Positions 4,921 to 20,249 of a stretch of DNA of 59,700 nt are shown here, in pieces. The translations under genes were made by a program, and so were the position numbers. The notes beneath the pieces are model-generated. The model was not told the origin of the DNA and did not search any database. It saw only the letters and a program-made list of their open reading frames with translations. The stretch lies in the NCBI GenBank assembly GCA_964587045.1, contig CAZPJY010000006.1:1-59700 (forward strand), given 5' to 3'. Within the stretch, counting starts at the first letter, position 1, and each line of letters begins with the position of its first letter. This stretch comes from an uncultured Methanosarcinales archaeon (lineage in GTDB: Archaea > Nanobdellota > Nanobdellia > Woesearchaeales > CAZPJY01).

Positions 4921-7056
4921 CTATTCCTCAATCATCTTGAACAGCAGCCTGTCGGAGAACTCAGCCTGCTTGCCCTTGTTCCAGTTCATCACCGGCCTGA
5001 TGTAGCCGACGATGCGCGAGTAAACCTCGCAGGTCGCCTGGCACGTGGGGCATGATTCGACCTTCCCCTTGAGGTAGCCGTGCTCTGGACAGACCGAGAA
5101 GGTTGGCGAGAGCGTGAAGTAGGGCATGCGGTAGTTCTCCGCGACCTTTCGCACCAGCCTCTTGACAGAAGCCGTGTCGGGCATCGACTCGCCGAGGAAG
5201 ATGTGGAACACGGTGCCGCCGGTGTACTTGGTCTGTATCTCGTCCTGCAGGTCCATGGCCTTGAAGATGTCGTGGGTGTAGTTGACAGGCAGCTGCGTCG
5301 AGTTGGTGTAATACACACCGATTCCGGGGTTCCTCTTCCAGATGGCCTCATTGGCGACGATTATGCCCGGATACTTCTCCTTGTCCTTCTTGGCTAGCCT
5401 GAACGACGTGCCCTCAGCAGGCGTTGCCTCGAGGTTGAACAGGTCGCCGGTTTCATCTTGGTAGTGGCTTATGACCTCGCGCATGAAGTCCATTATCTTC
5501 AGCGCCATCGCCCTGCCCTTCTCAGTCGTCATGTTCTCGCCGTCGAGGTTCTTGAGGCATTCGTTCATGCCGACGAGGCCGATGGTTGAGAAGTGGTTGG
5601 CCCAATACCTGCCGTAGCGCTTCTGCACGTCCTCGAGGAAGTACTTGGAGTACGGATATAGATGCATCTCCGTGAACTTCTCGAGCACTTTCCTCTTGAT
5701 CTGCAAGCTGTCCTTGGCCGAGTCCATCAGCTTCCTCAGGCGCGCGAAGAAATCCTTCTCGTCCTCAGACAGGTAGCCAAGACGGGGCAGGTTGATAGTC
5801 ACTACCCCAATGCTTCCCGTGAGAGGGTTTGATCCGAACAGCGCGCCTCCACGCTTGATAAGCTCGCGGTTGTCCAGGCGCAGGCGGCAGCACATGCTCC
5901 GCGCGTCGTCTGGGTTCATGTCCGAGTTGATGAAGTTTGAGAAGTAAGGGATGCCGTACTTAGCGGTCATCTTGAATATGGGCTCGAATTCTGGGTTGTC
6001 CCATTCGAACTCCTTGGTGATGTTGTAGGTCGGTATGGGGAAGGTGAATATCCTGCCCTTGCGGTCTCCTTCCATCATCACCTCTGCGAATGCGCGGTTG
6101 AGCAGGTTCATCTCCTCTTGGAACTCGCCGTATGTCTCGTTCTGCGGCTTGCCCCCGATGATGACCGGCTCCTTGGCCAGGCTTCCCGACGGGACCAGGT
6201 CGAAGGTGAGGTTGGTGAAGGGCGTTTGGAACCCCACCCGCGTCGGCACGTTGATGTTGAATATGAACTCCTGCATGGCCTGCTTTACCTCCTTGTACGA
6301 CAGCTTGTCATGCCGGATGAAAGGCGCAAGCAGAGTGTCGAAGTTGGAGAACGCGACGGCTCCGGCCGCCTCGCCCTGGACGGTGTAGAAGAAGTTCACC
6401 GCCTGGCCCAGAGCCGCACGGAAGTGCTTCGGTGCCTTCGACTCGACCTTGGCCGAGACGCCGCCGAAGCCTTTTATAAGCAGGTCTTTAAGGTCCCATC
6501 CGCAGCAGTAGACCGATAGCATGCCCATGTCGTGGATGTGGTAGTCGCCGGAGTCGTGGTGCTCCTTGACCTCCTTTGGATAGACGCGGTTCAGCCAGTA
6601 GTTGCTCATGATGTGTGCCGAGACGTAGTTGTTTAGCCCTTGCACCGAGAAGTTCATGTTGCTGTTTTCCTTGACCCTCCAGTCCGACTCCTGCAGGTAC
6701 TTATCCACCATGTCGGCAGAGCTGAGCACGAACCCTATCTTCCTGAGCTCCTCGTGCTGCTTCCTGTAAAGGATGAAGGCCTTGGCGACCTGGAAGAGGT
6801 GCGCTCGCATGAGCTGCTCCTCGATGGTGTCCTGTATGCGTTCGACCTCGAAGATGCCTTCATTTCCCAGCACCTTCTCGGCGCCGTCGACGATCTCGCT
6901 CACCAGCTCGGTCCTGGTCTCTCCCACAGCCTCGAATGCCTTGGTCACGGCGTTTCTTATTCTGCTGCTGTCATAATCCACTATGCTTCCGTTTCTCTTC
7001 TTGACCTTCTTCACTGAACAACACCTCTTACAGCATTTCCGTTCATCTTTCCTCAA
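4921..7056 (-). CDS. nrdD: Class III (anaerobic) ribonucleoside-triphosphate reductase with N-terminal ATP-cone
   Basis: VKKRNG ATP-cone, SMCCRL, EATPAE, CPEHG..CPTC Zn site, YSRIVGYIRP glycyl-radical motif. Confidence 0.95.
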   Translation of the reverse strand: MRKDERKCCKRCCSVKKVKKRNGSIVDYDSSRIRNAVTKAFEAVGETRTELVSEIVDGAEKVLGNEGIFEVERIQDTIEEQLMRAHLFQVAKAFILYRKQHEELRKIGFVLSSADMVDKYLQESDWRVKENSNMNFSVQGLNNYVSAHIMSNYWLNRVYPKEVKEHHDSGDYHIHDMGMLSVYCCGWDLKDLLIKGFGGVSAKVESKAPKHFRAALGQAVNFFYTVQGEAAGAVAFSNFDTLLAPFIRHDKLSYKEVKQAMQEFIFNINVPTRVGFQTPFTNLTFDLVPSGSLAKEPVIIGGKPQNETYGEFQEEMNLLNRAFAEVMMEGDRKGRIFTFPIPTYNITKEFEWDNPEFEPIFKMTAKYGIPYFSNFINSDMNPDDARSMCCRLRLDNRELIKRGGALFGSNPLTGSIGVVTINLPRLGYLSEDEKDFFARLRKLMDSAKDSLQIKRKVLEKFTEMHLYPYSKYFLEDVQKRYGRYWANHFSTIGLVGMNECLKNLDGENMTTEKGRAMALKIMDFMREVISHYQDETGDLFNLEATPAEGTSFRLAKKDKEKYPGIIVANEAIWKRNPGIGVYYTNSTQLPVNYTHDIFKAMDLQDEIQTKYTGGTVFHIFLGESMPDTASVKRLVRKVAENYRMPYFTLSPTFSVCPEHGYLKGKVESCPTCQATCEVYSRIVGYIRPVMNWNKGKQAEFSDRLLFKMIEE

Positions 7057-7508
7057 GCCTTAAGTTTCTGAATCTCTTCACTGAACCTGTCCACGTCGGA
7101 GAAGCCGCGGTAGACCGAGGCGAACCTGATGTAGGCTACAGAATCGAGCCTCTTGAGCTTCTTCATCACCAGCTCGCCCACGACCCTGCTCGGAACCTCG
7201 GTGCCCTTCCTGCGGCGGAGGGCACGTTCGATGGACTCGGCTGCCATCTCGATCTGCTCATGCTCTACAGGCCTCTTGTTGCAGGCCCTGGACATGCCGC
7301 CAATCAGCTTGTCCATGGAAAACTGCTCCCTACTCCCATCCTTCTTGATGATGGTGAGGTCGATGGCCTCTATCCTCTCGTAGGTGGTGAACCTCTTGCC
7401 GCAGGACAGGCACTCACGCCTCCTGCGGGTGATGTCCTCGTCGCTCTCCCTAGTCTCTGTGACCTTGGTCTGGTCCTTTTGACAGTAGGGGCATCTCACA
7501 TCAATCAA
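7053..7508 (-). CDS. nrdR: Transcriptional repressor NrdR
   Basis: CPYC...RRRRECLSCGKRFTTYE Zn ribbon, ATP-cone, VAYIRFASVY. Confidence 0.95.
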   Translation of the reverse strand: MIDVRCPYCQKDQTKVTETRESDEDITRRRRECLSCGKRFTTYERIEAIDLTIIKKDGSREQFSMDKLIGGMSRACNKRPVEHEQIEMAAESIERALRRRKGTEVPSRVVGELVMKKLKRLDSVAYIRFASVYRGFSDVDRFSEEIQKLKA

Positions 7509-7647
7509 CTCCTTTGGACTCCTTTTATAGGTTTGGTTGATTGGGAATCATCCCCTTTATGATGTAGAATAGGAGATAGATATCCCATCATAGATAAGCA
7601 AAGCTATAGCAACTAGCATAACTAAGAGAAGCTATATGTTTGCTTAT

Positions 7648-7695
7648 ACGCTATATGTAGTGTTTAATTTTGAATTTGCACACCACATCTAGTAG
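7648..7695. promoter_or_regulatory. Tandem NrdR boxes
   Basis: ACGCTATATGTAGTGT (7648-7663) and ACACCACATCTAGTAG (7680-7695) resemble acaCwAtATaTwGtgt; starts 32 bp apart; upstream of nrdRDG. Confidence 0.8.
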
Positions 7696-7716
7696 ATTAA
7701 TGAATGGGGTCGGTCA

Positions 7717-7724
7717 TATATAAA
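7717..7724 (-). promoter_or_regulatory. Probable TATA box of nrdRDG
   Basis: TTTATATA on the minus strand, ~22 bp from the nearer NrdR box (7680-7695). Confidence 0.5.
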
Positions 7725-7806
7725 GATTTCTGAAATCGAAAATATAGTATTTCAACCACTATACTGCAGACAGAATATGACTTTTGAGTAGTAAGGAAAA
7801 AGAGAA

Positions 7807-7998
7807 TTATTCGATGACCTTGATGCATCCGGCAGGGCAGGAGGCCTCAGCCTCCTTGTTGCAGCCAACGGCGTCGAGCTCAGTCTTCTTCGGCCTGGCC
7901 TTGTTGGTCTCGTTGTTCATCTCCCAGTTGTCGGCGCAGGCGACTGTGCACGCTGCGCACCCGATGCAGGTCTCCTCGTTGTACTCAATCTTAACCAT
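7807..7998 (-). CDS. Ferredoxin (single cluster)
   Basis: CIGCAAC...CPAGCI. Confidence 0.9.
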   Translation of the reverse strand: MVKIEYNEETCIGCAACTVACADNWEMNNETNKARPKKTELDAVGCNKEAEASCPAGCIKVIE

Positions 7999-8044
7999 AT
8001 TATCCCTCCTAAAACACTAATAAGGGGTTTTCCCTTTAAAAACC

Positions 8045-8284
8045 TTATTGCTTATTCTCCGCGATGGCTTTATTGACCTCTGAGATCATCTCGTCAATCT
8101 TGGCATCGTCCATGCCGTGTCCTTTGCATCCTTCCTCGATGGTTTCATAGTATGAGACGTGGCATCCTATGCAGTGGAGGCCGAAGTCCATCATGACCAT
8201 CGCCGACTCAGGATATGCGCGGACAACTTCTCCTATGAGCATGCCCTTCTTGACAGGGCCTTCCTCGTTTTCCTTCTTTGCCAT
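8045..8284 (-). CDS. DUF1858 / hybrid-cluster-associated redox disulfide protein
   Basis: YPES...FGLHCIGC...ETIEEGCKGHG. Confidence 0.85.
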   Translation of the reverse strand: MAKKENEEGPVKKGMLIGEVVRAYPESAMVMMDFGLHCIGCHVSYYETIEEGCKGHGMDDAKIDEMISEVNKAIAENKQ

Positions 8285-8350
8285 GGACCTGGGAAAATCC
8301 GTCGCCCTATAAAAACGTTGTGGAAAAGCTGTCTGTTGCTTTTATCTCCT

Positions 8351-8430
8351 ATCCGGAAGATATCCGGCCGAGGAATAACGCATCTGAATTATATCCGGAT
8401 TTTATGGAATAATTCTGATAATATCGGAAA
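8351..8430. promoter_or_regulatory. Helically phased ATCCGGA-like motif array upstream of unit 1
   Basis: atccggaa 8351, atccggcc 8362, atctgaat 8382, atccggat 8393, ttctgata 8413, atcggaaa 8423; AT-rich TATA-like box near 8455. Confidence 0.55.
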
Positions 8431-8488
8431 TTTGTTCTCTTTTTCTCAATAACGCTTAATAAAATTCTCGCACGCTTCCCAAGTCACA

Positions 8489-9007
8489 ATGGAAAACAAA
8501 AAACGCATTTGGCCGAAAATCATCAAATACGGCTTCGTGGCAGGGCTGGCAGCGACTTTTGGGGTTTACTCAAGCGACACGGTGAAGAAAAACATCGACG
8601 AGTTCAGGTACCGCAAGGTGCCTGCAGCAGAGCAGTTCGTAGACACATGGGGCTCAATCGACCTCAAGGTCGAACGGGTCCGGAACGGAAGCGGCGAGCT
8701 GGAGACCTACCTAAACATAAGTGGAGAGAGGCTCCCTGTACTCGAGTCTGGGAACGGCTACCAGCTCGGCAGCGACGAATACCTGATGGACCGGGTGGGC
8801 TCGATGGACCTGTACGAGTTCATGGACCAGGTGGTGCCGCGGCTCGATGACGAGCAGAGGGAAGAGCTGGCGGGAAGGCTGCTGGGCAGCCTGCAGAAAG
8901 GGAGCCGCTACGAGGTCATCATGGACCAGATGGGATCCAACATCAAAGAAGAGCTCAAGGACTTCGGGGATTTCTGGGAGCGCTTCTACAACGACAAGAT
9001 CAAGTGA
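8489..9007 (+). CDS. Membrane-anchored hypothetical protein
   Basis: N-terminal hydrophobic helix; first gene of the cluster. Confidence 0.7.
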   Translation: MENKKRIWPKIIKYGFVAGLAATFGVYSSDTVKKNIDEFRYRKVPAAEQFVDTWGSIDLKVERVRNGSGELETYLNISGERLPVLESGNGYQLGSDEYLMDRVGSMDLYEFMDQVVPRLDDEQREELAGRLLGSLQKGSRYEVIMDQMGSNIKEELKDFGDFWERFYNDKIK

Positions 9008-9017
9008 GGTGGATGCG

Positions 9018-9191
9018 ATGCTCAGAACCGCGTGGAAAATGGTCAAGAGGGGACTGCTCTACACCGGGATTTTCGCTGTGGGCTACTACGTCGGCGCAGG
9101 AGGATGCTCAGGGCGCCAGTACGACGCAAAGCCGAAGCAGGTGATCGAGCACAGGATAGAGAAGAACAGCCTGGAGGACAGGATAAGATGA
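9018..9191 (+). CDS. Small single-TM protein
   Basis: MLRTAWKMVKRGLLYTGIFAVGYYVG; GAGGTGG upstream; stop overlaps the next ATG. Confidence 0.6.
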   Translation: MLRTAWKMVKRGLLYTGIFAVGYYVGAGGCSGRQYDAKPKQVIEHRIEKNSLEDRIR

Positions 9192-9361
9192 ACCTGCGTG
9201 AGCTCATCATCCTCAAGATGGTGTTCCTTGCGGGGTACGCGACAGGTTACATAACTCAGTCGAAGGCGCCATACGCGCCCCCGCCGGCAAGGCAGGAGGT
9301 AAGGCAGCCACAGCACCCGACCATCGACCAGCTGCTGAGGGAGAGCTATGGAAAGCAATGA
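9188..9361 (+). CDS. Small single-TM protein
   Basis: MNLRELIILKMVFLAGYATGY; ATGA overlap with the previous gene. Confidence 0.6.
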   Translation: MNLRELIILKMVFLAGYATGYITQSKAPYAPPPARQEVRQPQHPTIDQLLRESYGKQ

Positions 9362-9995
9362 TGGACGGGCACTCGAGCTGCTGGTGGCCGAGGTCCTCAA
9401 GCGGCAGGGCAAGCGGAAAGTCGGGACGAGGATGGACATAACTTACAGGAGCGACGGGCACCTGCTTGTCCACAACTACGACGTGGTCTTCTACGACCAT
9501 GGGTTGGGTCCTGTCAGGTGGGGACTCCATGTGGCTGAGGTCAAGTGCTACACGAGCTCCAAGGTGCCCGAGGTCGACATAAATCACTACCTGGGCAAGC
9601 TGCAGGACAACCGTATCGAACCGGCCAACGCGCTGTTCTACACCATAAGCGACTACACCAGGAAGGCACGCGCTAGGGCAAAGCTTGCCGGGCTAACCCT
9701 GCTCAACGGCAACGAGCTCGAGCGGGACTACCACACAGCCTTCGGAACAGACCCCAAGCTTGAGGGCATGCTCAAGAAGCTCTGCTCGGCAGAGACCTTG
9801 ATAAGGGAGAAGTCAGCGTCCGCCCGCAAGGTGAGCAGGTTCACCAAGGGGGCAACGCTGGCAGACCGTTTCCTGGCAGCGAGGATCGGATCGCTGATCA
9901 AACGGAAGCAGAAGTTCGAGGAGAAGATATCAAGATATCGGGACAAGCACAACATCCCGAAAATAGAGCAGATGATAATGGAGGGAAAAAAATGA
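9348..9995 (+). CDS. Mrr-like PD-(D/E)xK restriction endonuclease domain protein
   Basis: GRALELLVAEVL...YDVVF...VAEVKCY...SDYTRKARARA...LLNGNEL, matching the Mrr_cat pattern. Confidence 0.75.
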   Translation: MESNDGRALELLVAEVLKRQGKRKVGTRMDITYRSDGHLLVHNYDVVFYDHGLGPVRWGLHVAEVKCYTSSKVPEVDINHYLGKLQDNRIEPANALFYTISDYTRKARARAKLAGLTLLNGNELERDYHTAFGTDPKLEGMLKKLCSAETLIREKSASARKVSRFTKGATLADRFLAARIGSLIKRKQKFEEKISRYRDKHNIPKIEQMIMEGKK

Positions 9996-11047
9996 CAACG
10001 ACCGAAGCAAAGCAGGATGAGGACATACTCTCCCGCATGCAAAAGGAACAGGATGTAATCGACAAGGAGGAAGAAGTCGACCTGAGAAGCATAAGCGAGC
10101 TACTCCGCGAGGGGTCCTCTGCCACGGATAGGAGAAGGGGCAGGTACAACGAGACCGTTGGTTACAGGAACCTGAACAACGTGCTAAGGGAGATGGCCGA
10201 GCTGCAGTACCAAATAGAGAAGCGCTTCAGGGAGAAGGCTTCGCCCTACGTGAGGTTCTTCGAGGGCGTCAAGGAGAAGTACTTCAACTTGCTGGGCAGG
10301 GAGTACCAGAGGTTCACCCTCGACGAGCTGATGAGGATGCAGGTGACCAACGTCGAGAAGATCAACAACCACCTGCAAGAGGTCACGGGCAACACCAAGT
10401 TCGTGATAGACGACCTCCTCGACCACAAGAAGAGCGTGGTGCTCGAGAGGAAGGCGGCGAAGGAGGGCTTCAAGAAATACTCGACGGAGCTCGCGCAGAA
10501 GATCAAGAGGCACAAGGAGGTCACGGACGAGCTCAAGACCATGAAGAGGTCGGACCCGCTCTTCGACGACTATGAGATAGACCAAATGGAGCTGGACAAT
10601 GACATAAGCGAGCTCAAGCTCAACGCGACAGACCTTGGGACCAAGATGGTCTTCAAACATGACGAGCTGGGGCTTCTCAAGCAGTACGACAAGCTGATGA
10701 AGGTTTCATACAGCAGGTGCAAGCTGTTCTCCAGCAACGTCAAGAACATCAGCGAGCATGTAAAAAGCGTCCAGCCCTACATCAGGGCGCTCAAGGACCA
10801 GCAGGAGGGCATGGCCAACCTTTACAAGGCCGCAAAGCCACTGAGCGACTTCATAGTCAAGAGCATGGGACTGCTCGCGGAAGGGACGCGCGAGATGGGC
10901 AACATAATCAGGGAGGACCGGCTGAACGGAAACTTCCCAAAAGAGATGAGCGGAAGCCTGTCCGGCACGGTCAACGACATCCAAGCGGTCAACAGCCAGT
11001 ACTCTGACGAGCTCATCAACAGGATACAGGACTACCTCGACGGATGA
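9992..11047 (+). CDS. Long alpha-helical coiled-coil protein
   Basis: 351 aa, heptad-rich, no catalytic motif seen. Confidence 0.7.
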   Translation: MTTTEAKQDEDILSRMQKEQDVIDKEEEVDLRSISELLREGSSATDRRRGRYNETVGYRNLNNVLREMAELQYQIEKRFREKASPYVRFFEGVKEKYFNLLGREYQRFTLDELMRMQVTNVEKINNHLQEVTGNTKFVIDDLLDHKKSVVLERKAAKEGFKKYSTELAQKIKRHKEVTDELKTMKRSDPLFDDYEIDQMELDNDISELKLNATDLGTKMVFKHDELGLLKQYDKLMKVSYSRCKLFSSNVKNISEHVKSVQPYIRALKDQQEGMANLYKAAKPLSDFIVKSMGLLAEGTREMGNIIREDRLNGNFPKEMSGSLSGTVNDIQAVNSQYSDELINRIQDYLDG

Positions 11048-11820
11048 AGATGGCGCAGCTGAAGGCTTTCAGGCTTTACAGGCACCTCGCGGACCTCGAG
11101 AAGTGTCTGAAGGCCCTCTGCGAAAGGGTGGCTGTGCCCGACCTCGGAGGGGTGGTCAACGCGGTGCACGCCCTCAAGTACGAGCAGGTAGGGGAGATTG
11201 CGCAGGGCAGCGGCTTTCCTGTGGCAGGGGCGTACTACCAGCTGAGGCGCGACAGGGACATGCTGTCGGGCCGCACCGTCGAGGAGCGCGACCTGGTCTC
11301 GGAGTTTTCGCAGGCACTCCTCTCCAAGGACAGGAAGGCTGTCCGTGAGGCGCAAGAGGCCTACAGGGAGAGGAGGTACCTCAAGGCCGTTACCAAGCTG
11401 GCCCTGCCGCAAGAGGATTACGCCCTGGTAAGCGACGGGGAGATGAGGGGCTCTGAACTGAGCCACGACCCTAGCACGCCGTGGATCTGGAGGTGGTACC
11501 TGGCTGTGGGGGACTTCCGCAAGGCAGAGGTGGCCCAGTACGAGCTCTGCGAACCTGAGAGGCTCGCCAAGGTGCTCTCGATGAAGGGGGCTGACGTCGC
11601 TGTGGTCGAACGCACCTCGCTTGGGCCGTTCCACTCCAACGAGGCCAGGACCGACCTGGGCAAGCTCCTGTCAGAGGGCGAGTTCGCCCTTGAGCTTCGC
11701 AGGCAGACCTACACCCCTGTCGGAGGCTCGACCTCTGTTGTCACAGTCCTGGTCGGGTGCTGGTCTGGGGACTCCATTGCCCAGGCTGTGCCTGAAGCAG
11801 ACATATACAGGGTGGCATGA
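11044..11820 (+). CDS. Hypothetical protein
   Basis: 258-aa ORF coupled on both sides by ATGA overlaps. Confidence 0.6.
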   Translation: MKMAQLKAFRLYRHLADLEKCLKALCERVAVPDLGGVVNAVHALKYEQVGEIAQGSGFPVAGAYYQLRRDRDMLSGRTVEERDLVSEFSQALLSKDRKAVREAQEAYRERRYLKAVTKLALPQEDYALVSDGEMRGSELSHDPSTPWIWRWYLAVGDFRKAEVAQYELCEPERLAKVLSMKGADVAVVERTSLGPFHSNEARTDLGKLLSEGEFALELRRQTYTPVGGSTSVVTVLVGCWSGDSIAQAVPEADIYRVA

Positions 11821-13367
11821 TGGAAGTAAGGATTGCGGATGAGCGGATGCTCGAGGCCAGGCGGTCTGCTGAGTCGCGCCTCTACAGGAGGTACGACCAC
11901 GCAAGGCTGCTCACTCTCGGGAGGGACAAGCTTAAGCTGTCTGCTGAAGAGGCGATACTTTGTGACGGCATTGAAGGCTTGGTTGCCGCTTACCAGACTG
12001 TTTCTGAAAGCCTCGGATCTTACCCTGATGACATCAGGAACGGCTACTCGTGGTACGCCGCAGGGGCGTACGGCAAGTCGGTGCTCTCAAGGCTTCTGAG
12101 CCCACAGCCCATCCACCGCTCCCTGGACGAGTTCTCAAGCCTGTGCCCGGACTTTTCGGAGATCAACAACGGGGGACTTTCAGGGCCTTCATCCAGGAGC
12201 CTGGTGGAGTCCTCATACTTTTCGATAGTCAAGATGCTCAAGAAGCCGGAGGAGGTGACAGACTTCTCCTTTTGGTTCTTCGACCAGATAAGCACGAGGG
12301 GCCGGGCGCTCGCAGCCTCGCGCGAGATGCCCCACCTGGTAATAGACGGGCTTGCCATAGGACCTGCTCAGGAATCGGTTCTGCCCAAGGAGACCTTCGG
12401 CGACATAATCGGCCAGGACGAGGCCGTGGGCCGCATAGAGGAATTAGTGAGCCACGTCATGAAGTACAACACCCGCCGGTGTGTAAACCCGGTCGGGGAG
12501 TTTGCCAACTACGTGCTGCTGTACGGATATCCGGGAATGGGCAAGACCAGCACCGTGAAGGCCATCAAGAGGAAGATGCTGGAGGTCGGCTCCAGGAACG
12601 GCAAGCCAGTTGTTGTCAGGGAGGTTGACGGGGGAATCAAGGACAAGTGGTACGGCAACACCGAGCAGGCTTTGATAGCCAGCTTTGACGCGGTCAGGGC
12701 CAGGGATGTCATAGGGCTGCTGGTGGTTGACGACGCGGACGGACTTTTCCCCAGCAGGAACCTACTGGGCCACGGCGACCCCTCGAGGGGTCCGCAGCAG
12801 ACCCTGATGAGCCTGCTTGAAGGGGTCAAGACAGAGAACAGGTACAACCACCTGGTGGTTTTCATGACCAACCGCATGGACGACCTGGGCGAGGCGGTGC
12901 TTCAGAGGACTAGCCGGGCCCAGTTCGAATTCGCGAGGTACTCGAATGAGGGCCAGTATGAAAGGCTGATCAAGAAGAAGAGCGAGGGCTTCGACAGGTT
13001 CAAGGTAAAGGACTGGAAGGCTGTGGGGGGGTACTGCCTGGACAACAAGCTCTCGGCACGGGAGGTCACCAACGCTGTGACCGATGTCATAACCACAAGC
13101 AAGCGCTACAAGGACGAGGACTGGATGTACTCAAACGACTGCGACCCTTCAAAGGTCACCGAATCGATCAGGAAACAGTACAGGACTGTGACGGATAAGG
13201 AGCTGCTCGAGGCCTTGGCCGGCAAGGTGGAGATGCGCAGGCGCGGCAGGGAGATCCAGAGGTCATCCGAGATCAGCCAGATGTCTGAGCAGATACTCAG
13301 GCGGTTCGAGGCCGAGGACCTCGCTATAGAGGCACTTGCAAAGAGGATGGGTGAGGGGGATGGATAA
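11817..13367 (+). CDS. Classical-clade AAA+ ATPase
   Basis: Walker A GYPGMGKT, pore loop KWYG, Walker B LLVVDDAD, SRH-like MTNR..LGEAVLQR. Confidence 0.9.
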   Translation: MMEVRIADERMLEARRSAESRLYRRYDHARLLTLGRDKLKLSAEEAILCDGIEGLVAAYQTVSESLGSYPDDIRNGYSWYAAGAYGKSVLSRLLSPQPIHRSLDEFSSLCPDFSEINNGGLSGPSSRSLVESSYFSIVKMLKKPEEVTDFSFWFFDQISTRGRALAASREMPHLVIDGLAIGPAQESVLPKETFGDIIGQDEAVGRIEELVSHVMKYNTRRCVNPVGEFANYVLLYGYPGMGKTSTVKAIKRKMLEVGSRNGKPVVVREVDGGIKDKWYGNTEQALIASFDAVRARDVIGLLVVDDADGLFPSRNLLGHGDPSRGPQQTLMSLLEGVKTENRYNHLVVFMTNRMDDLGEAVLQRTSRAQFEFARYSNEGQYERLIKKKSEGFDRFKVKDWKAVGGYCLDNKLSAREVTNAVTDVITTSKRYKDEDWMYSNDCDPSKVTESIRKQYRTVTDKELLEALAGKVEMRRRGREIQRSSEISQMSEQILRRFEAEDLAIEALAKRMGEGDG

Positions 13368-14494: not shown

Positions 14495-14935
14495 ATGAGA
14501 AAACCTTACGAGAACGACAAGCCTCTTTATGTCACGATCGAGCTGGTGACTGCCAAGACGCTTGACCCGACTCTCACCAAGCATGTGCCTGTGGAGTACA
14601 CAAAACAGAGGTTTCGGGACCTGTTCGATTTCATGATCGACCCCGAGAAGGACAACCTCAATCCGGGTTACACCATTGAAGAGAAGGCGACAGCAGAGAC
14701 CCTGAACGACTGGATTAGGAAGTACCAGCGCAACTCCGAGGACAAGCTCATCATAACCTACAAGGTCGACGGAAAACCGGTCGAGGACGCAGACCTTACC
14801 CTCGATGACATGGTGGGGGACTTCACCGACAGGATAATCCAGGTCGACAAGGTCGAGAGGGACGACGGCATCGTCGTGCCGGTCAAGAAGATCCACCTCT
14901 ACACGAGGTACGAGGATGGTGGGGCGGGATATTGA
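14495..14935 (+). CDS. Putative ubiquitin-like (beta-grasp) modifier with C-terminal GG-AGY
   Basis: YKVDGKPVEDADLTLDD and IHLYTRYEDGG parallel ubiquitin LIFAGKQLEDGRTLSD and LHLVLRLRGG; lies ahead of E2/JAB/E1. Confidence 0.65.
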   Translation: MRKPYENDKPLYVTIELVTAKTLDPTLTKHVPVEYTKQRFRDLFDFMIDPEKDNLNPGYTIEEKATAETLNDWIRKYQRNSEDKLIITYKVDGKPVEDADLTLDDMVGDFTDRIIQVDKVERDDGIVVPVKKIHLYTRYEDGGAGY

Positions 14936-16263
14936 GCGATCCCCACTCCGAGCTCCTGGCTGCAAACACCATCTTCGACTCGCTCCGGCTCACACGGGAG
15001 CCGGTGCTGGTCTGCGGAAGCAGGATGTACTCAATCGACATCCCCCTGGGTGAAGACCCGTCGGATTTCATCATCATCGACAGTACCAAGTACCCCCTAG
15101 AGGAGAGCCTTCCTGTGAGCAGCCTAGAAGCGATGTACCTCGACGACAACAGGGCTGGCATTGAGGGATACCTGAACCAGTACTTCATCTCGCTCAAGGA
15201 CAGGCACAACCGCCTGAGCGACGAGCTGAGCAGGCTGGACGGGATCTACTCCTCGATGAGCGAGCTCTCACTTGAGACCTTCATCAAGGTCGACGTCTTC
15301 CGGCAGTTCATCAACCTGTACAGCAGGAGCGCGGGCGGGAACCGTCAAACCATCGACCAAGACGTCGTAAACCAGTCACTCGAGATGCCAGACGTCCCGA
15401 CGGTGAGGGAGCTGTTTTCAGGCGAAAGCTTTTTTCGCAGGTACGTGGGCAGAAAGGATTTCCTCTTCCTGGATGGGAAGGTGCGCCAGGTCCAGGAGGT
15501 AAACAGCGAGGGCACCATCAGGATAGGACGGATAAGTTACGAGCAGGTGGGCGAGCCGATCCCGATGATTGAGTTCTGCGAAGGCTACAGGGAAACCATA
15601 ATATCCACGATTGATGCGCTCCTAACTGAGAGGGGCAAGGGGATCCTCAAGTCCATCGAGGAGAAGGTGAGGTGCAAGGAGTCCCTTGAGGCCAGCATAA
15701 GGGATTACCAGCAAGAAGTCGACATAGACAGGGACCTGCCCCAGCTCTCCATCAAGCAGATGAAGAAGGACAGGTACCAGGTCGTGATGGATCACCCTCC
15801 CTTCATCATCAAGAGGTCCAACTGCGGAGAGCCCAAGTTCTACAGGTTCGACGCCTTCAAGGCAAAGACCACGGTCAGCATGAAGGGCAAGACAGTCACA
15901 GTCCAATCACTGCCCAAGGTCGCCAAAGGGTACGCTCACCCATTCGTTTTCGGTGACGGCAGCATCTGCTACAACCCCGACTCCGACAGGCTGGCCGAGA
16001 CCATAGGGATTGACAGGCTGCCCATGTCGTTTTCCATCGACGGCAAGGACAGGATGCTGTACGCCAAGCGGATAGCCATGATGTTCGACCAGTGCAGGGA
16101 AGTGATGACCCGGGGCTACTTCAAAGACGAGAATGACATGCACCCTGTGATAAGGCTGTACCCTGAGAAGTTCCCGAGCAGCCTGATGACACAGGCCGCC
16201 GCGCTCAGGTCTGGCCTGAAGGTTTACGACAACGACAACAAGGGGGTGGTGATGGTTGGATGA
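14932..16263 (+). CDS. Putative E2 (UBC-fold) conjugating enzyme with a long N-terminal helical extension
   Basis: GYAHPFVFGDGSICY (His 15937, Cys 15967) resembles the UBC motif HPNxxxxGxIC. Confidence 0.6.
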   Translation: MSDPHSELLAANTIFDSLRLTREPVLVCGSRMYSIDIPLGEDPSDFIIIDSTKYPLEESLPVSSLEAMYLDDNRAGIEGYLNQYFISLKDRHNRLSDELSRLDGIYSSMSELSLETFIKVDVFRQFINLYSRSAGGNRQTIDQDVVNQSLEMPDVPTVRELFSGESFFRRYVGRKDFLFLDGKVRQVQEVNSEGTIRIGRISYEQVGEPIPMIEFCEGYRETIISTIDALLTERGKGILKSIEEKVRCKESLEASIRDYQQEVDIDRDLPQLSIKQMKKDRYQVVMDHPPFIIKRSNCGEPKFYRFDAFKAKTTVSMKGKTVTVQSLPKVAKGYAHPFVFGDGSICYNPDSDRLAETIGIDRLPMSFSIDGKDRMLYAKRIAMMFDQCREVMTRGYFKDENDMHPVIRLYPEKFPSSLMTQAAALRSGLKVYDNDNKGVVMVG

Positions 16264-17302
16264 CCCGCTGTCATGCATAAGGATAACCAGGAATGCCATG
16301 GGCAAGGCGCAATACATCTCAAGGCGGATCACGGAGATGACAGGGCTCGATCTCGAAGTCGCGTTCTACCTCCTCAACTCAAAGGATGCCTACGAGTCCG
16401 GGGACATAGCGGTAAGGGAGATAATGCTGCCACACGCACAGGTCGTCAGGGATTCCAAGTACACCATCCCAGGAAACGCGCTGATAATAGACAAGCACAA
16501 CTTCGGGAAGGAATGGGTCATGCACGGCTACGGGCATTCCCACGGCGGCATGGACGCCTTCCACTCCGGGCCTGACGACGATTCGCTGCGCATGAACCTC
16601 AAGTCGGGAGGTCTCAACTACGTCACCACCACGGAAGCCGAGCTGTTCGAGGGCGAATGGGAGGACGGCAGGGCCGTGTTCAGCATTGGCGGCAGGTCGT
16701 ACGTGCTCGATTTCGAGCTCATGGATCTTTTCAAACATGATGCCCTCAACAGCAGGAAGATAATCCTCGCGGAGAGGAGGCCCGAGGAGGTCGAGTTCCT
16801 CTATGGCATGGTCTTCAACAACAAGGGAAGCGATCCCTTCGGAGTCATAGGCATCAAGAGGGATGGTGAGATCACCCTCGAAGGCAGGGTGGGAATCAAG
16901 GTTATAGGGGAAGAATCCGAGTTCGACACAGAAGCGATTGATGCAAGGATGCTCTCCTCCATCAAGTGCGGGAGCAGGCCTCTTAGCGATTACGTCGCGA
17001 GAAAAGGATGCATCTGCAGCCTTCCCGACAAGTATGATCACGAGCAGCAGCACGCGTACAACAAGGACCTGATAGGCCTACATGAGAGATGGGCAGAAGG
17101 CAAGATAGAAGAAGTCGGGCCCGTACAGGAGCGACTCGACGACGACAGGGAGGAGCTGCGCAAGCGCCTGTACGCGCTGAACTCTGGGATGAAATCTCTC
17201 CTCCCTTCAAGGAGGGACAGGGAGGAGTCGGAGTTCATACAGAGGTCGATCAATGCCATCGACGGCCTCATCGAGGAGTTGGAGGCTAGGGGTGGGGAGT
17301 GA
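16256..17302 (+). CDS. JAB/MPN+ metalloprotease 1
   Basis: LEVAFYL (Glu), GHSHGGMDAFHSGPDD (HxH-x7-S-x2-D). Confidence 0.85.
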   Translation: MDDPLSCIRITRNAMGKAQYISRRITEMTGLDLEVAFYLLNSKDAYESGDIAVREIMLPHAQVVRDSKYTIPGNALIIDKHNFGKEWVMHGYGHSHGGMDAFHSGPDDDSLRMNLKSGGLNYVTTTEAELFEGEWEDGRAVFSIGGRSYVLDFELMDLFKHDALNSRKIILAERRPEEVEFLYGMVFNNKGSDPFGVIGIKRDGEITLEGRVGIKVIGEESEFDTEAIDARMLSSIKCGSRPLSDYVARKGCICSLPDKYDHEQQHAYNKDLIGLHERWAEGKIEEVGPVQERLDDDREELRKRLYALNSGMKSLLPSRRDREESEFIQRSINAIDGLIEELEARGGE

Positions 17303-18726
17303 TGGAAGTCGACGGAAGGTACTCGCGCCAGGAGCTCATCCAGGGCTGGGACCAGGAGAGCATGGAGGCCGCATCGGTTATGATCGTCGGCAGCGGGCCT
17401 CTCGCCCAGTACGTCGCCTCCCACATGGCGGGGCTCGGTGTTGGCAGCATGTATCTGATAAGCAACTCGAAGATAGACTCCGCCCTGCCCTCAGAGTTCA
17501 TGACATCGATCCCGAGCAGCGGGCGGTTCCTCAAGGGAGCCTCGAAGGTCGAGCTGATGGCATTCATGGTCGAGGAGATCAACACGACGATTGACGTGAA
17601 GGCCATGCACACCAACTCTCTCGAGGCGCTCGTGGCGTCATACGAACCCACTGTGATAGTGGACGCTACCAACCAGCCCAGGTCGAAGATAAAGAACCTC
17701 GACATAGCGAGGAAGTACAAACGGCCCCTCATCTCCGCGTCTTGCGGTTCGTCATACGGAGAGCTCATCAGCATGCTGCCCGGCCTTGAAGATGTGGATC
17801 TCGATTGGGACTCTTTCTACCTGTCGAACTACGAGGGCAGGGAGCAGGAGCCTGCGATCAGCGGGGTAATCGCCGGCCTGGTGAGCGATGAGGTGCGGAA
17901 GAACATCTTCACGTTCGAGGGCATGACCTATTCAGACGCGCCCAATCCCAGCGGCAACGTCATCAGGTACAACCTGGCATCGCCCACCCGGAAGGGGACC
18001 CAGGACGCGCCGAGGCCCATGATGGACTACTACCAGGGGTTCTCTGCGCTCGTGGTCGGAGCTGGGGCTGTCGGGACCTATGTCGCGCTCGCCCTCGCGG
18101 CGAGGGGGTTGGGAAGGATTACCTTGGTTGACAAGGATGTGGTGGAGGGAACCAACCTCAACAGGCAGCTGCTCTACTACCGTGCCGTCGGGCAGAAGAA
18201 GGCAACCACCCTGGCGGAGAGGCTCATGATGGTCAACCCAAACGTGAGCGCCCGGGGAGTGGAGGAGTGGTACGACGAGGGCGGCATCGAACTGGTGGAG
18301 TCCGGAAACAATGGAAAGCCCTTCGATGTGGTTTTCTCATGCGTCGACTCAAACAAGGCCCGCTTCCTCATCAACGAGCACTGCGTCCGGGCAGGCGTGC
18401 CGCTGATCGAGGGAGGCTGCTCAGAATCCTCCGGCCAGGTCAGGATGTACCTTCCGGGAAGGATACCCTGCATAGACTGCCTCTTCGACCTTGCGAACTT
18501 CAAGGAGAAGAAGACTGAGAGGAGCTTCTGCGGCCAGGACGCAACGCCGAGCGTCGTCATGCCCAACTGCGTCATCGGATCCCTGATGGTCTCTGAGTCG
18601 AGGCCTGCCCTGTACCCGCTCACCTCGACGCCCATAGACAACTACATCCGGTACGACTCCCTGGGGGTCGGGGATAAGATAGGCATACAAAGAAAGGAGA
18701 GGAAGAAGAATGGCCACGAATGCTGA
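17299..18726 (+). CDS. E1-like activating enzyme with tandem ThiF domains
   Basis: N-domain RYSRQ...GSGPLA (degenerate). C-domain GAGAVG, DKDVVEGTNLNRQ, CVDSNKAR, PCIDC and SFC (candidate catalytic Cys). Confidence 0.9.
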   Translation: MMEVDGRYSRQELIQGWDQESMEAASVMIVGSGPLAQYVASHMAGLGVGSMYLISNSKIDSALPSEFMTSIPSSGRFLKGASKVELMAFMVEEINTTIDVKAMHTNSLEALVASYEPTVIVDATNQPRSKIKNLDIARKYKRPLISASCGSSYGELISMLPGLEDVDLDWDSFYLSNYEGREQEPAISGVIAGLVSDEVRKNIFTFEGMTYSDAPNPSGNVIRYNLASPTRKGTQDAPRPMMDYYQGFSALVVGAGAVGTYVALALAARGLGRITLVDKDVVEGTNLNRQLLYYRAVGQKKATTLAERLMMVNPNVSARGVEEWYDEGGIELVESGNNGKPFDVVFSCVDSNKARFLINEHCVRAGVPLIEGGCSESSGQVRMYLPGRIPCIDCLFDLANFKEKKTERSFCGQDATPSVVMPNCVIGSLMVSESRPALYPLTSTPIDNYIRYDSLGVGDKIGIQRKERKKNGHEC

Positions 18727-19876
18727 TGTCGATTTGGACACCGTCAGGCGGGAACTCGGCCCGGTTGAGATCACGAGCGAAGCTTACAGAAAGGTGAGGT
18801 ACATATCCTCGCGGGTGAGCGAGCTCTCAGGCACTCCCATGGAAGTGAGCTTCATACCACTTGATTACAAGGGCAACGGCAGTTCGGTCGTGAGGGAGGT
18901 CTATCTGCCCAAGAAACAGAAGGTAACGCCTTCGTCATGCCTGATAACCTCATCCATCACTGACCTGCACGAGCTGAAGAACGATCCTGACTGGAAGATA
19001 ATCGGATGGGGTCACTCCCACGGAGGCCACAACCTTTACTTCTCGCGGCCAGACCGCGAGGTTATCAGGTCGTATGTGGCCAACCCAAAGAACCACAACG
19101 GATCTTCCTACCATTACTCGGTCGGGCTTGTCTTCAACGACCATGAGGAGGCCTTCAAGGCTGCTTACGGAGTCGAGATGGGCGGCGAATACCACTTCAT
19201 CGACGACGTGGAAGTCAGGATCGTGGACGAGGAGAACGGGATACCCTTCGACAGGGAGGCAATCGACCGCAAGCTGGCGGAGTCCATCCTAATAGAGGGC
19301 AGGCCGCTTGAGGACTTGGTCGAAAAGCCTGACTACAAGACAAGGTATGAGGATTTGCTAGCAGAATACAACAAGGAGACGGCAAGGCTTCGGCAGGCGA
19401 TAAGCAGGCTCAGGGAGGAGAAAGGCTCGCTGCTCGAGCGGCTGGTGGAGGAAGCGGTGCCGGTTGAAACCGCACTCTACGACCGCCTCGGCACATCTTA
19501 CAGACAGAACCTGGAGACATACAAGGATCTTTACGACATAAAGCCAGGAAGTGGAGCGGTCGATGATGTCGTGGAGGTTATCAGTGGCAGTTACAAAAAG
19601 GACGGCAAGCGGCTGTGGACATGGGAGTCCAGGGTGAGCGAGGTCGAGAGCATCCTGGAGGGTGAGATGACCAGCCTCGACGTGAAGAAGGCGGTGGACC
19701 TGATGAACGTCATAAGCACCAACAAGTACCTGGCCAAGAAGCACCCCGAAAAGCTCAGCAAGCTGTACATGGCCTTGGCCAAGCGCACAGTGAAGAAGAA
19801 AGGTGGTAAAGATGCAAAAAAAAGAGCTGGATCTGATAAGGCTGCTAAGAAACGACGCGCGAATAAGTCTGGCTGA
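18710..19876 (+). CDS. JAB/MPN+ metalloprotease 2 with a C-terminal helical region
   Basis: MEVSF (Glu), IIGWGHSHGGHNLYFSRPD. Confidence 0.85.
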   Translation: MATNADVDLDTVRRELGPVEITSEAYRKVRYISSRVSELSGTPMEVSFIPLDYKGNGSSVVREVYLPKKQKVTPSSCLITSSITDLHELKNDPDWKIIGWGHSHGGHNLYFSRPDREVIRSYVANPKNHNGSSYHYSVGLVFNDHEEAFKAAYGVEMGGEYHFIDDVEVRIVDEENGIPFDREAIDRKLAESILIEGRPLEDLVEKPDYKTRYEDLLAEYNKETARLRQAISRLREEKGSLLERLVEEAVPVETALYDRLGTSYRQNLETYKDLYDIKPGSGAVDDVVEVISGSYKKDGKRLWTWESRVSEVESILEGEMTSLDVKKAVDLMNVISTNKYLAKKHPEKLSKLYMALAKRTVKKKGGKDAKKRAGSDKAAKKRRANKSG

Positions 19877-20249
19877 TATAGGACGCAAGACCGGAATGCC
19901 GATCAGCACGGTGTTCGACAAGATGGGCAAGCTGGGCCCCCTGCTTCGGAGGACCGTGGCCATCCCGGATTTCATCCAGCTGGGGTACTCTGTGAGAGTG
20001 GGCTTCCTGATCAAGACCCCAAAGCGGGACCAACTGAGGGAAGTGCTGCAGAGCCATCCCAATGTGAACACGCTGTACAGGATAACCAACGGGTATGACT
20101 ACTACCTCGAGGCCATATTCAGGAATCACGGCGAGCTCGAGGAGTTTGAAGAGGCCATCGACAGGCTGGTCACGAGCAAAATCAAGTTCCACACAGTGGA
20201 GATACTAAACCAGGAGAAGTTCATGACAGGGGAATGCAATGTCTGTTGA
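19812..20249 (+). CDS. Lrp/AsnC family transcriptional regulator
   Basis: DLIRLLRNDARISLADIGRKTG HTH; YRITNGYDY RAM-like domain. Confidence 0.85.
   Translation: MQKKELDLIRLLRNDARISLADIGRKTGMPISTVFDKMGKLGPLLRRTVAIPDFIQLGYSVRVGFLIKTPKRDQLREVLQSHPNVNTLYRITNGYDYYLEAIFRNHGELEEFEEAIDRLVTSKIKFHTVEILNQEKFMTGECNVC

Follow-up and report, generated by a model that had tools for sequence, protein, structure and literature searches.

How a symmetric ThiF/MoeB dimer gave rise to the eukaryotic E1 with its one active site is an open question. In Uba1, UBA6 and UBA7, and in the pairs SAE1-SAE2 and NAE1-UBA3, an inactive adenylation domain (IAD) bearing the RYSRQ motif forms a pseudo-dimer with an active adenylation domain (AAD). 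Among prokaryotes, this arrangement is known from BilD, the E1 of the Bil (bacterial ISG15-like) operons (PDB 8TYZ/8TZ0), which is described as an IAD-AAD-CYS chain in which the IAD contributes Arg9 and four cysteines bind zinc, and whose architecture has been taken to indicate common descent with the canonical E1s (Chambers et al., bioRxiv 10.1101/2023.09.26.559546). Here, we describe a single-chain, two-half E1 encoded in a 59,700-nucleotide stretch of DNA from an uncultured archaeon of the Woesearchaeales (GenBank assembly GCA_964587045.1, contig CAZPJY010000006.1, positions 1 to 59,700; hereafter, the window). We consider it likely that this enzyme serves a ubiquitin-like conjugation operon, and that its asymmetry arose by internal duplication, separately from that of Uba1.

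Other prokaryotic conjugation machineries with E1, E2 and JAB components include CBASS (cyclic-oligonucleotide-based antiphage signalling system) Cap2, an E2-E1 fusion, and the Bub operons, for which Tyr/Ser oxyesters, JAB-E1 or E2-E1 fusions and BubE are reported (Ye et al., bioRxiv 10.1101/2024.11.21.623953). The Asgard/Caldiarchaeum-type and bacterial single-domain E1s have one adenylation domain per chain, in which RYSRQ and NLxRQ occur together and a Cys lies shortly after the crossover CxxC; they are partnered by a ubiquitin-like protein (Ubl), a JAB protein and an E2 that Pfam recognizes as UQ_con. A family such as the one described below is absent from the relevant passages of PMC11354881 and PMC1779556.

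One degenerate and one intact adenylation domain

The E1 gene and its two halves are as follows.

17299-18726, + strand: E1 gene, 475 amino acids from a GTG start
17299-17973, + strand: N-terminal half (N-half), ThiF-fold adenylation domain, predicted inactive (IAD), catalytic motif set missing
18025-18726, + strand: C-terminal half (C-half), intact adenylation domain (AAD), full motif set

Residue numbers count from the GTG; the likelier start is the ATG at 17302, which shares bases with the stop codon of the preceding gene (TGATG), and the database copy has 474 amino acids. Pfam ThiF matches the protein in two stretches (E 5.8e-56), and its only Pfam matches are of the ThiF/Rossmann kind. 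When scored with a hidden Markov model (HMM) of the ThiF core, made from 31 single-domain E1/MoeB sequences, the C-half reached 123 bits and the N-half (residues 6-161) 69 bits, with an E value of 2e-21. Thus, the N-half has the ThiF fold, as the initial annotation of the locus had supposed.

That annotation had also described a degenerate N-half that keeps RYSRQ and an intact C-half, and each motif that it named was recovered. The N-half carries R7YSRQ11 (R10 codon, 17326-17328) and G31SGPLA36, without GxGxxG, DxD or NLxRQ. The C-half carries G254AGAVG259, D278-x-D280, N286LNRQ290, K301, C348VD350, C391IDC394 and S409FC411 (C411 codon, 18529-18531) and has no RYxRQ of its own. Across 60 aligned E1 homologues, G254, G256, D280, N286, R289, K301 and C411 are invariant, whereas the N-halves have NLxRQ in none and GxGxxG in only seven. 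R10 is Arg in 53 of these homologues and is invariant among the 61 sequences of a second alignment. The catalytic set given for MoeB and UBA1 in PMC12355090 (Gly41, Arg73, Lys86, Asp130) is complete only in the C-half; the N-half retains D122, the equivalent of Asp130, as do 45 of the 60 homologues. The motif asymmetry between the halves is family-wide, conserved and beyond chance.

The zinc motif is variable, with CxxC in 40/60 homologues and a terminal CxC in 34/60. The window E1 ends in H473-x-C475 in place of the latter, and this pair probably completes its zinc site. Because C411 is invariant in all 60 homologues while the zinc cysteines vary, it is singled out as the predicted catalytic residue. 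It lies 17 residues beyond C394, a spacing that ranges from 11 to 47 in the homologues. UBA5 and ATG7 are likewise described in PMC12355090 as having the catalytic Cys on the crossover loop.

The AlphaFold2 model of the E1, based on 61 sequences, has a predicted local distance difference test score (pLDDT) of 90.8 and a predicted template modelling score of 0.93. Its best VIA-align matches are UBA7, Uba1 and UBA6 (Z 33-36, ~3 Å, 410-438 residues), which align over both halves, as expected of the single-chain pseudo-dimer initially proposed. UBA7 gave Z 35.6 at 2.9 Å over 410 aligned residues, Uba1 and UBA6 gave Z 33-35 over ~430, and BilD gave Z 33.2 at 3.0 Å over 381 (8TYZ) and Z 32.9 (8TZ0); the single-domain MoeB, ThiF and SAE2 reached only Z ~27, over ~220 residues for MoeB and ThiF. 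Presuming no early gap, the alignment starts (4 to 3 for 8TYZ) equate R10 with residue 57 of human UBA1 and residue 9 of BilD, which supports the suggestion that the inactive half supplies the Arg finger; Arg57 of UBA1 is a gamma-phosphate ligand according to PMC12355090. Presuming no terminal gap, the alignment ends equate C475 with the BilD zinc ligand Cys493. The crossover loop around C411 contains no helices in the model.

The contrast initially drawn with the homodimeric ThiF, MoeB and UbaA did not hold up as a claim to novelty. Because BilD is already known as a prokaryotic IAD-AAD single chain with a solved structure, the two-half architecture alone is not new. The conserved operon around the E1, which the initial annotation had not mentioned, is the more important feature.

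A conserved operon around the E1

The E1 belongs to a five-gene unit in which adjacent genes overlap by 3-17 nucleotides. The other four genes are as follows.

14495-14935, + strand: putative ubiquitin-like tag, 146 amino acids, ending in ...EDGG, then AGY (Gly-Gly at 142-143, 3-residue tail)
14932-16263, + strand: E2-like protein, 443 amino acids, C-terminal UBC-like domain with Y334-x-H336-P337-F-V-x5-I345-C346
16256-17302, + strand: JAB/JAMM metallopeptidase 1, 348 amino acids, H94-x-H96-x7-S104-x2-D107, weak Prok-JAB match (E 0.077)
18710-19876, + strand: JAB/JAMM metallopeptidase 2, 388 amino acids, H102-x-H104-x7-S112-x2-D115, Prok-JAB match (E 0.0057), overlapping the E1 stop

Operon position and the glycine motif point to the 146-residue protein as a putative Ubl, presumably with a beta-grasp fold. 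Its gene comes first in the operon at most loci. Among 51 aligned homologues, Gly occupies the conserved C-terminal column in 44, and Gly-Gly falls within the last 32 residues in 30, with tails of 0-19 amino acids. Tag genes are tandem or repeated, two or three per locus, at L065, L068 and L077; L065 also encodes a 408-residue protein to which a tag-like domain is fused N-terminally. Both JAB proteins were recognized by the HMM of their own family (E 2e-31 and 1e-33 for the first and second), in which 47 of 56 members have the HxH...D pattern. For the first, the predicted role is tag trimming or removal.

In the E2-like family, as aligned from genes upstream of the E1 only, C346 is the sole invariant column among 51 homologues, and H336 and P337 are at least 90% conserved. 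The motif aligns with HPNV..FC of a UQ_con protein (E 0.012). The AlphaFold2 model of the E2-like protein (pLDDT 88.7) matched six E2-fold entries with middling VIA-align scores (Z 6.1-6.7, model residues 106/112-406/419). Its N-terminal module, of beta-sheet and long-helix type, is internally duplicated (~1-110 and 156-263; HHalign 97%, E 1e-10). Among representatives at 50% identity, 786 clusters belong to the family at E<=1e-10.

We examined the window together with 60 of the 78 other E1-profile matches, each with ~7 kb of flank (61 loci). Within 6 kb and on the same strand, the tag was found at 51 of these, the E2-like gene at 54, a JAB gene at 53 and all three at 47. The most frequent gene order was tag, E2, JAB, E1 (22 loci), and the JAB gene followed the E1 in 13 others; the order of the window, with a JAB gene on either side of the E1, occurred at three.

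Several points weigh against reading this gene set as a conjugation cascade. The 61-locus counts use HMMs trained on the same loci, several of which are cut by contig ends. The tag found no match to known Ubls in Pfam (51 members), in a PDB profile search, in Atlas or by HHalign, the targets of the last being Crinalium Ubls, BilA and the C-termini of Asgard E1s and of Uba1. The E2 assignment consists of the motif and Z scores below 8, and Asn lies outside the four commonest residues after HP in the family. Foldseek returned nothing at E<=0.001 for the E2-like model; about 25 of the 45 matches listed are E2s by title, none of them significant. A PDB profile search with the E2-like alignment likewise gave nothing at E<0.04, and there was no consistent Pfam match across its 51 members.

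The same genes could instead form a ThiF/MoeB-type sulfur relay, in which the small protein would carry a thiocarboxylate for cofactor or tRNA thiolation and no protein would be conjugated. Databases annotate the E1 as ThiF/MoeB, its Cys on a short crossover loop resembles that of MoeB-type enzymes, a class-V aminotransferase family (cysteine-desulfurase-type fold) occurs near 5/61 loci, and radical-SAM genes follow some. We nevertheless regard such a relay as very improbable. The E1 scored far under the NCBIfam cut-offs for TIGR02356 (167 versus 275 bits), TIGR02355 (107 versus 377) and UbaA (104 versus 450), and the great majority of loci encode the E2-like protein with its invariant Cys. 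Rhodanese, MoaE and ThiG are absent among 61 scanned neighbour proteins, 40 of which had no Pfam match, and a ThiF-like gene with one domain, located elsewhere in the window genome on contig C7, groups with MoeB/ThiF in trees.

Other genes near the operon are also on the + strand. An Lrp/AsnC regulator (19803-20249) directly follows the second JAB gene, and regulators of this family are found close to the operon in 6/61 loci. Upstream, a co-oriented run starts with a gene for an Mrr-type restriction endonuclease domain (9348-9995; PF04471, E 1e-7), the only defence-like gene recognized near the operon, and extends to a gene for a 516-residue AAA ATPase (11817-13367), 1.1 kb before the tag gene, whose CDC48/PAN-like matches are below cut-off. 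No sigma-70 promoter or terminator was found upstream of the operon by a method ill-suited to archaea.

Comparison with Bil and other systems

Like Bil, the operon combines (putative) Ubl, E2-like, JAB and E1 genes, its commonest order being that of BilABCD, and its E1 is a single IAD-AAD chain that has a trans-Arg near the N-terminus and lacks a UFD; in both, the tag glycine is masked by a tail and no E3 was seen. The E1s differ in that the catalytic Cys lies on a short loop here and in a mobile ~80-residue helical CYS domain in BilD. The N-half scored as ThiF here, whereas none of five BilD N-halves did, and the family profile aligns to BilD over the C-half only. Neither PF14459 nor PF14463 appeared for the 60 members among the families listed (25 of 27), and PF14459 had no match in the window genome; of the BilD controls, taken from named plasmids, the pNGR234a protein matches PF14459, L100 and L101 match PF14463, and L102 matches neither. 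The E2-like proteins are 270-620 amino acids long, with HP-x7-IC and the duplicated N-module, whereas BilB-type E2s have CEHH or a Cys with a downstream His. HHalign gave no match to the Bil partners BilA and BilB, with probabilities of 0.5% and 0.2% against single NGR234 sequences and of 0.1% against a five-row BilA profile, all weak templates. Two JAB genes are often present here, and most hosts are DPANN-type archaea or Desulfobacterota; in the type II Bil table, no DPANN archaeon and one Heimdallarchaeon are listed. Lacking the BilD N-domain Pfam families, the CYS domain and detectable BilA/BilB similarity, the E1 was rejected as a plain BilD.

The L102 operon (Natrinema zhouii plasmid NZ_CP084885.1, 1285-4047) is a haloarchaeal Bil-like unit with a small gene, an E2-sized gene, a JAB gene and a 477-residue E1, which groups with BilD in trees and has a short loop from CxxC to the next Cys.

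Cap2 was also considered, as an E2-E1 fusion, and rejected: generic E1-E2 matches in PADLOC peak in the C-half, and the N-half here is a second, ThiF-fold adenylation domain. Relative to Bub, both predicted catalytic cysteines here (C411 and C346) are invariant. The E1 is less than half the length of Uba1, UBA6 and UBA7, its best structural matches, and lacks FCCH, SCCH and UFD. The Asgard/Caldiarchaeum-type and bacterial single-domain E1s form separate clades. One such operon, on a Crinalium epipsammum plasmid (L092, 3857-7334), encodes a single-domain E1, two Ubl-sized proteins, a UQ_con E2 and a JAB protein beside a type IV transfer gene.

Distribution in archaea and a bacterial branch

The E1 profile matched 67 of 401 genomes of the phylum (probably Nanobdellota) at E<=1e-40; 52 of these have both halves, three are partial and 12 have the C-half only. 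A separate count put the E2-like family at 9/31. Named full-length E1 homologues come from Woesearchaeota, Nanobdellota and Aenigmarchaeota, one unassigned archaeon and one Gemmatimonadota, which suggests a Nanobdellota host for the window. Pattern scans with the window E1, which can detect only close relatives, found none in genome or viral contig collections. In titles and abstracts, with subscription journals outside coverage, the literature held no description of the system in Woesearchaeota, Pacearchaeota, Nanobdellota, Nanoarchaeota or DPANN, nor of the ClpX-linked form described below.

Two operon copies per genome occur in several cases. The window genome (1.6 Mb), which is archaeal by an rpoB_arch match above cut-off, has a second complete operon on contig C11 (L031; C11:11000-29000, 5202-12458) with tag, E2, a 560-residue JAB and E1 genes. 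Downstream of its E1 come a gene of unknown kind and one with a protein-kinase domain, a pair that also follows the E1 in L042. At L049, L054, L058, L061, L069, L071, L075 and L082, the E1 is directly followed by loosely related proteins of 820-1070 amino acids that have no Pfam match, some of whose neighbours carry a radical-SAM domain. These large proteins are candidate targets or adaptors.

A further profile search yielded 67 loci (L107-L173), mostly from Desulfobacterota metagenome-assembled genomes, five being labelled archaeal. They encode the tag family (59 loci), E2 (57), JAB (47), a small unknown protein (45) and a ClpX-like ATPase (43); HMMs from the archaeal loci recognize 58/61 tag, 55/60 E2 and 47/48 JAB members. 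The gene set runs tag, E2, an unknown of ~150 amino acids, ClpX-like ATPase, JAB and E1, in two circularly permuted orders. The tags have EGG or QGG in 57/61, and the E1s have CxxC in 1/60 and the loop Cys in 58/60.

Origin of the two halves

Trees were built on the adenylation core (153-154 columns), with groups labelled from Pfam architecture, source names and motifs. In a quick tree of 88 rows, BilD fell inside most of the family C-halves (97). Two careful trees used 48- and 45-row subsets; rows left out of the 48-row set included the long-branch L031, L063, L072 and L085, the two bacterial members, and those for Cap2 and PaaA-like proteins. In the 48-row tree, a branch with support 94/99 parts both halves and the BilD AAD from Uba1, SAE2, Asgard and bacterial single-domain E1s and MoeB. 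The two halves are sisters (96/90) in the 45-row tree, for which BilD was omitted, most taxa were different and the aligner was run in a different mode. Neither half joins the eukaryotic domains in these trees.

Topologies were compared with approximately unbiased (AU) tests, which were run after the trees had been seen and took their Uba1 hypotheses from the initial annotation. Grouping the C-half with the eukaryotic AAD was rejected in the first set (p 0.012; 0.0065 with BilD added), whereas neither a grouping of both halves together (p 0.42) nor C-half monophyly alone (p 0.27) was. Of the 'convergent or ancestral' origin initially offered, trees of both halves thus favour the convergent alternative, without settling the matter. 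The evidence on the other side includes a second set in which the C-half and eukaryotic AAD were not rejected (p 0.072), a grouping of the N-half with the Uba1 IAD that was not rejected either (p 0.075), and the quick tree, which leaves the N-halves and the window C-half unresolved. The trees also have few eukaryotic rows, with SAE1, NAE1, UBA3, UBA5 and ATG7 left out.

These two AU results would also fit descent of the family and eukaryotic Uba1 (and BilD) from a common two-half ancestor, which would make the asymmetry ancestral and not convergent, in line with the common ancestry of BilD and canonical E1s argued by Chambers et al. The domain order and trans-Arg position are as in Uba1, structural coverage is better against Uba1 than against BilD, and the E1 profile's top PDB sequence matches are Uba1, UBA3 and SAE2, with BilD outside the best 60 of 84. 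The fold match is uninformative on ancestry, however, because a ThiF homodimer fused in tandem into one chain would match the Uba1 fold in any case. With the halves grouping with each other in both careful trees, the C-half rejected from the eukaryotic AAD in the first set, and FCCH, SCCH and UFD missing, we judge a shared two-half ancestor unlikely. On these sequence comparisons, an independent duplication, apart from Uba1, is favoured as the probable origin; the placement of BilD is weaker and involves long branches.

Proposed mechanism and role

Going by what is described for Bil and Uba1, a JAB protein would cut off the tail beyond the tag glycine, and the C-half would adenylate that glycine with ATP; R10, contributed by the N-half, would complete the active site and stand in for a second subunit. 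The tag would then form a thioester with C411 on the short crossover loop and move from there to C346 in the E2-like protein. With no E3 seen, the choice of targets probably falls to the duplicated N-terminal module of that protein. The tag would end on target lysines, from which the JABs could release it again.

Our leading guess, on analogy with Bil, whose hallmarks include lysine conjugation and anti-phage activity, is that the system has an accessory conflict or antiviral function. Such a role suits the operon because its spread is patchy, several genomes hold two copies and gene order is variable. A point against it is that PADLOC, run on nine window proteins, found no specific defence system, just generic E1-E2 ThiF and AAA matches.

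Close behind ranks tag-directed unfolding by AAA+ ATPases. Here the chemistry would be the same and the purpose would be proteostasis or remodelling: the tag would mark proteins for an unfoldase, ClpX-like in bacteria and of proteasome or CDC48/PAN type in archaea. In the bacterial branch, the ClpX-like gene, which lies inside the operon and has Walker A, Walker B and GYVG in 40/40 full-length copies, argues for this role. None of these 40 copies showed an IGF-type loop by regular expression, and therefore docking on ClpP may not occur. In archaea, a ClpX-like homologue is found at four loci and a different AAA gene lies just upstream at four more (L032, L035, L036, L043); the window has its co-oriented CDC48/PAN-like AAA gene, and its genome encodes two proteasome subunits. 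Yet such an ATPase is present at only 8/60 other archaeal loci, a count without a background rate, and the window AAA, two genes away, is only weakly similar to the AAA family of L032, L035, L036 and L043 (25-29% identity over 138 amino acids). A presence as patchy as that of the two-half E1 and the E2 is also unlike a core degradation pathway. For the system as a whole, we hold unfolding to be possible though doubtful, and an accessory conflict role stays the leading guess.

Implications

The family probably represents a conjugation system that resembles Bil without belonging to it, that is found mostly in DPANN-type archaea, and whose E1 reached the Uba1 design independently. A probably complete E1-E2-tag-protease cascade would thus be present in about one-eighth of the sampled genomes of an archaeal phylum with reduced genomes, with E2-like and tag families for which Pfam has no model. 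Because it provides hundreds of two-half E1s with an alignable inactive half, convergence versus ancestry becomes testable by phylogeny; the family also allows mechanisms to be compared without the mobile CYS domain.

A broader picture can be put forward only tentatively: that DPANN archaea own a large, unannotated ubiquitin-like system with an independently duplicated Uba1-style E1, of which BilD may be an eroded offshoot, and a branch with a private ClpX-like unfoldase. If true, the E1 would be a minimal intermediate, its IAD-AAD body being eukaryote-like and its loop cysteine MoeB/UBA5-like. BilD, as an offshoot and not a sister of Uba1, would undercut the derivation of the canonical E1 architecture from Bil-like bacteria, and the ClpX-linked branch would represent a parallel invention of ubiquitin-directed unfolding.

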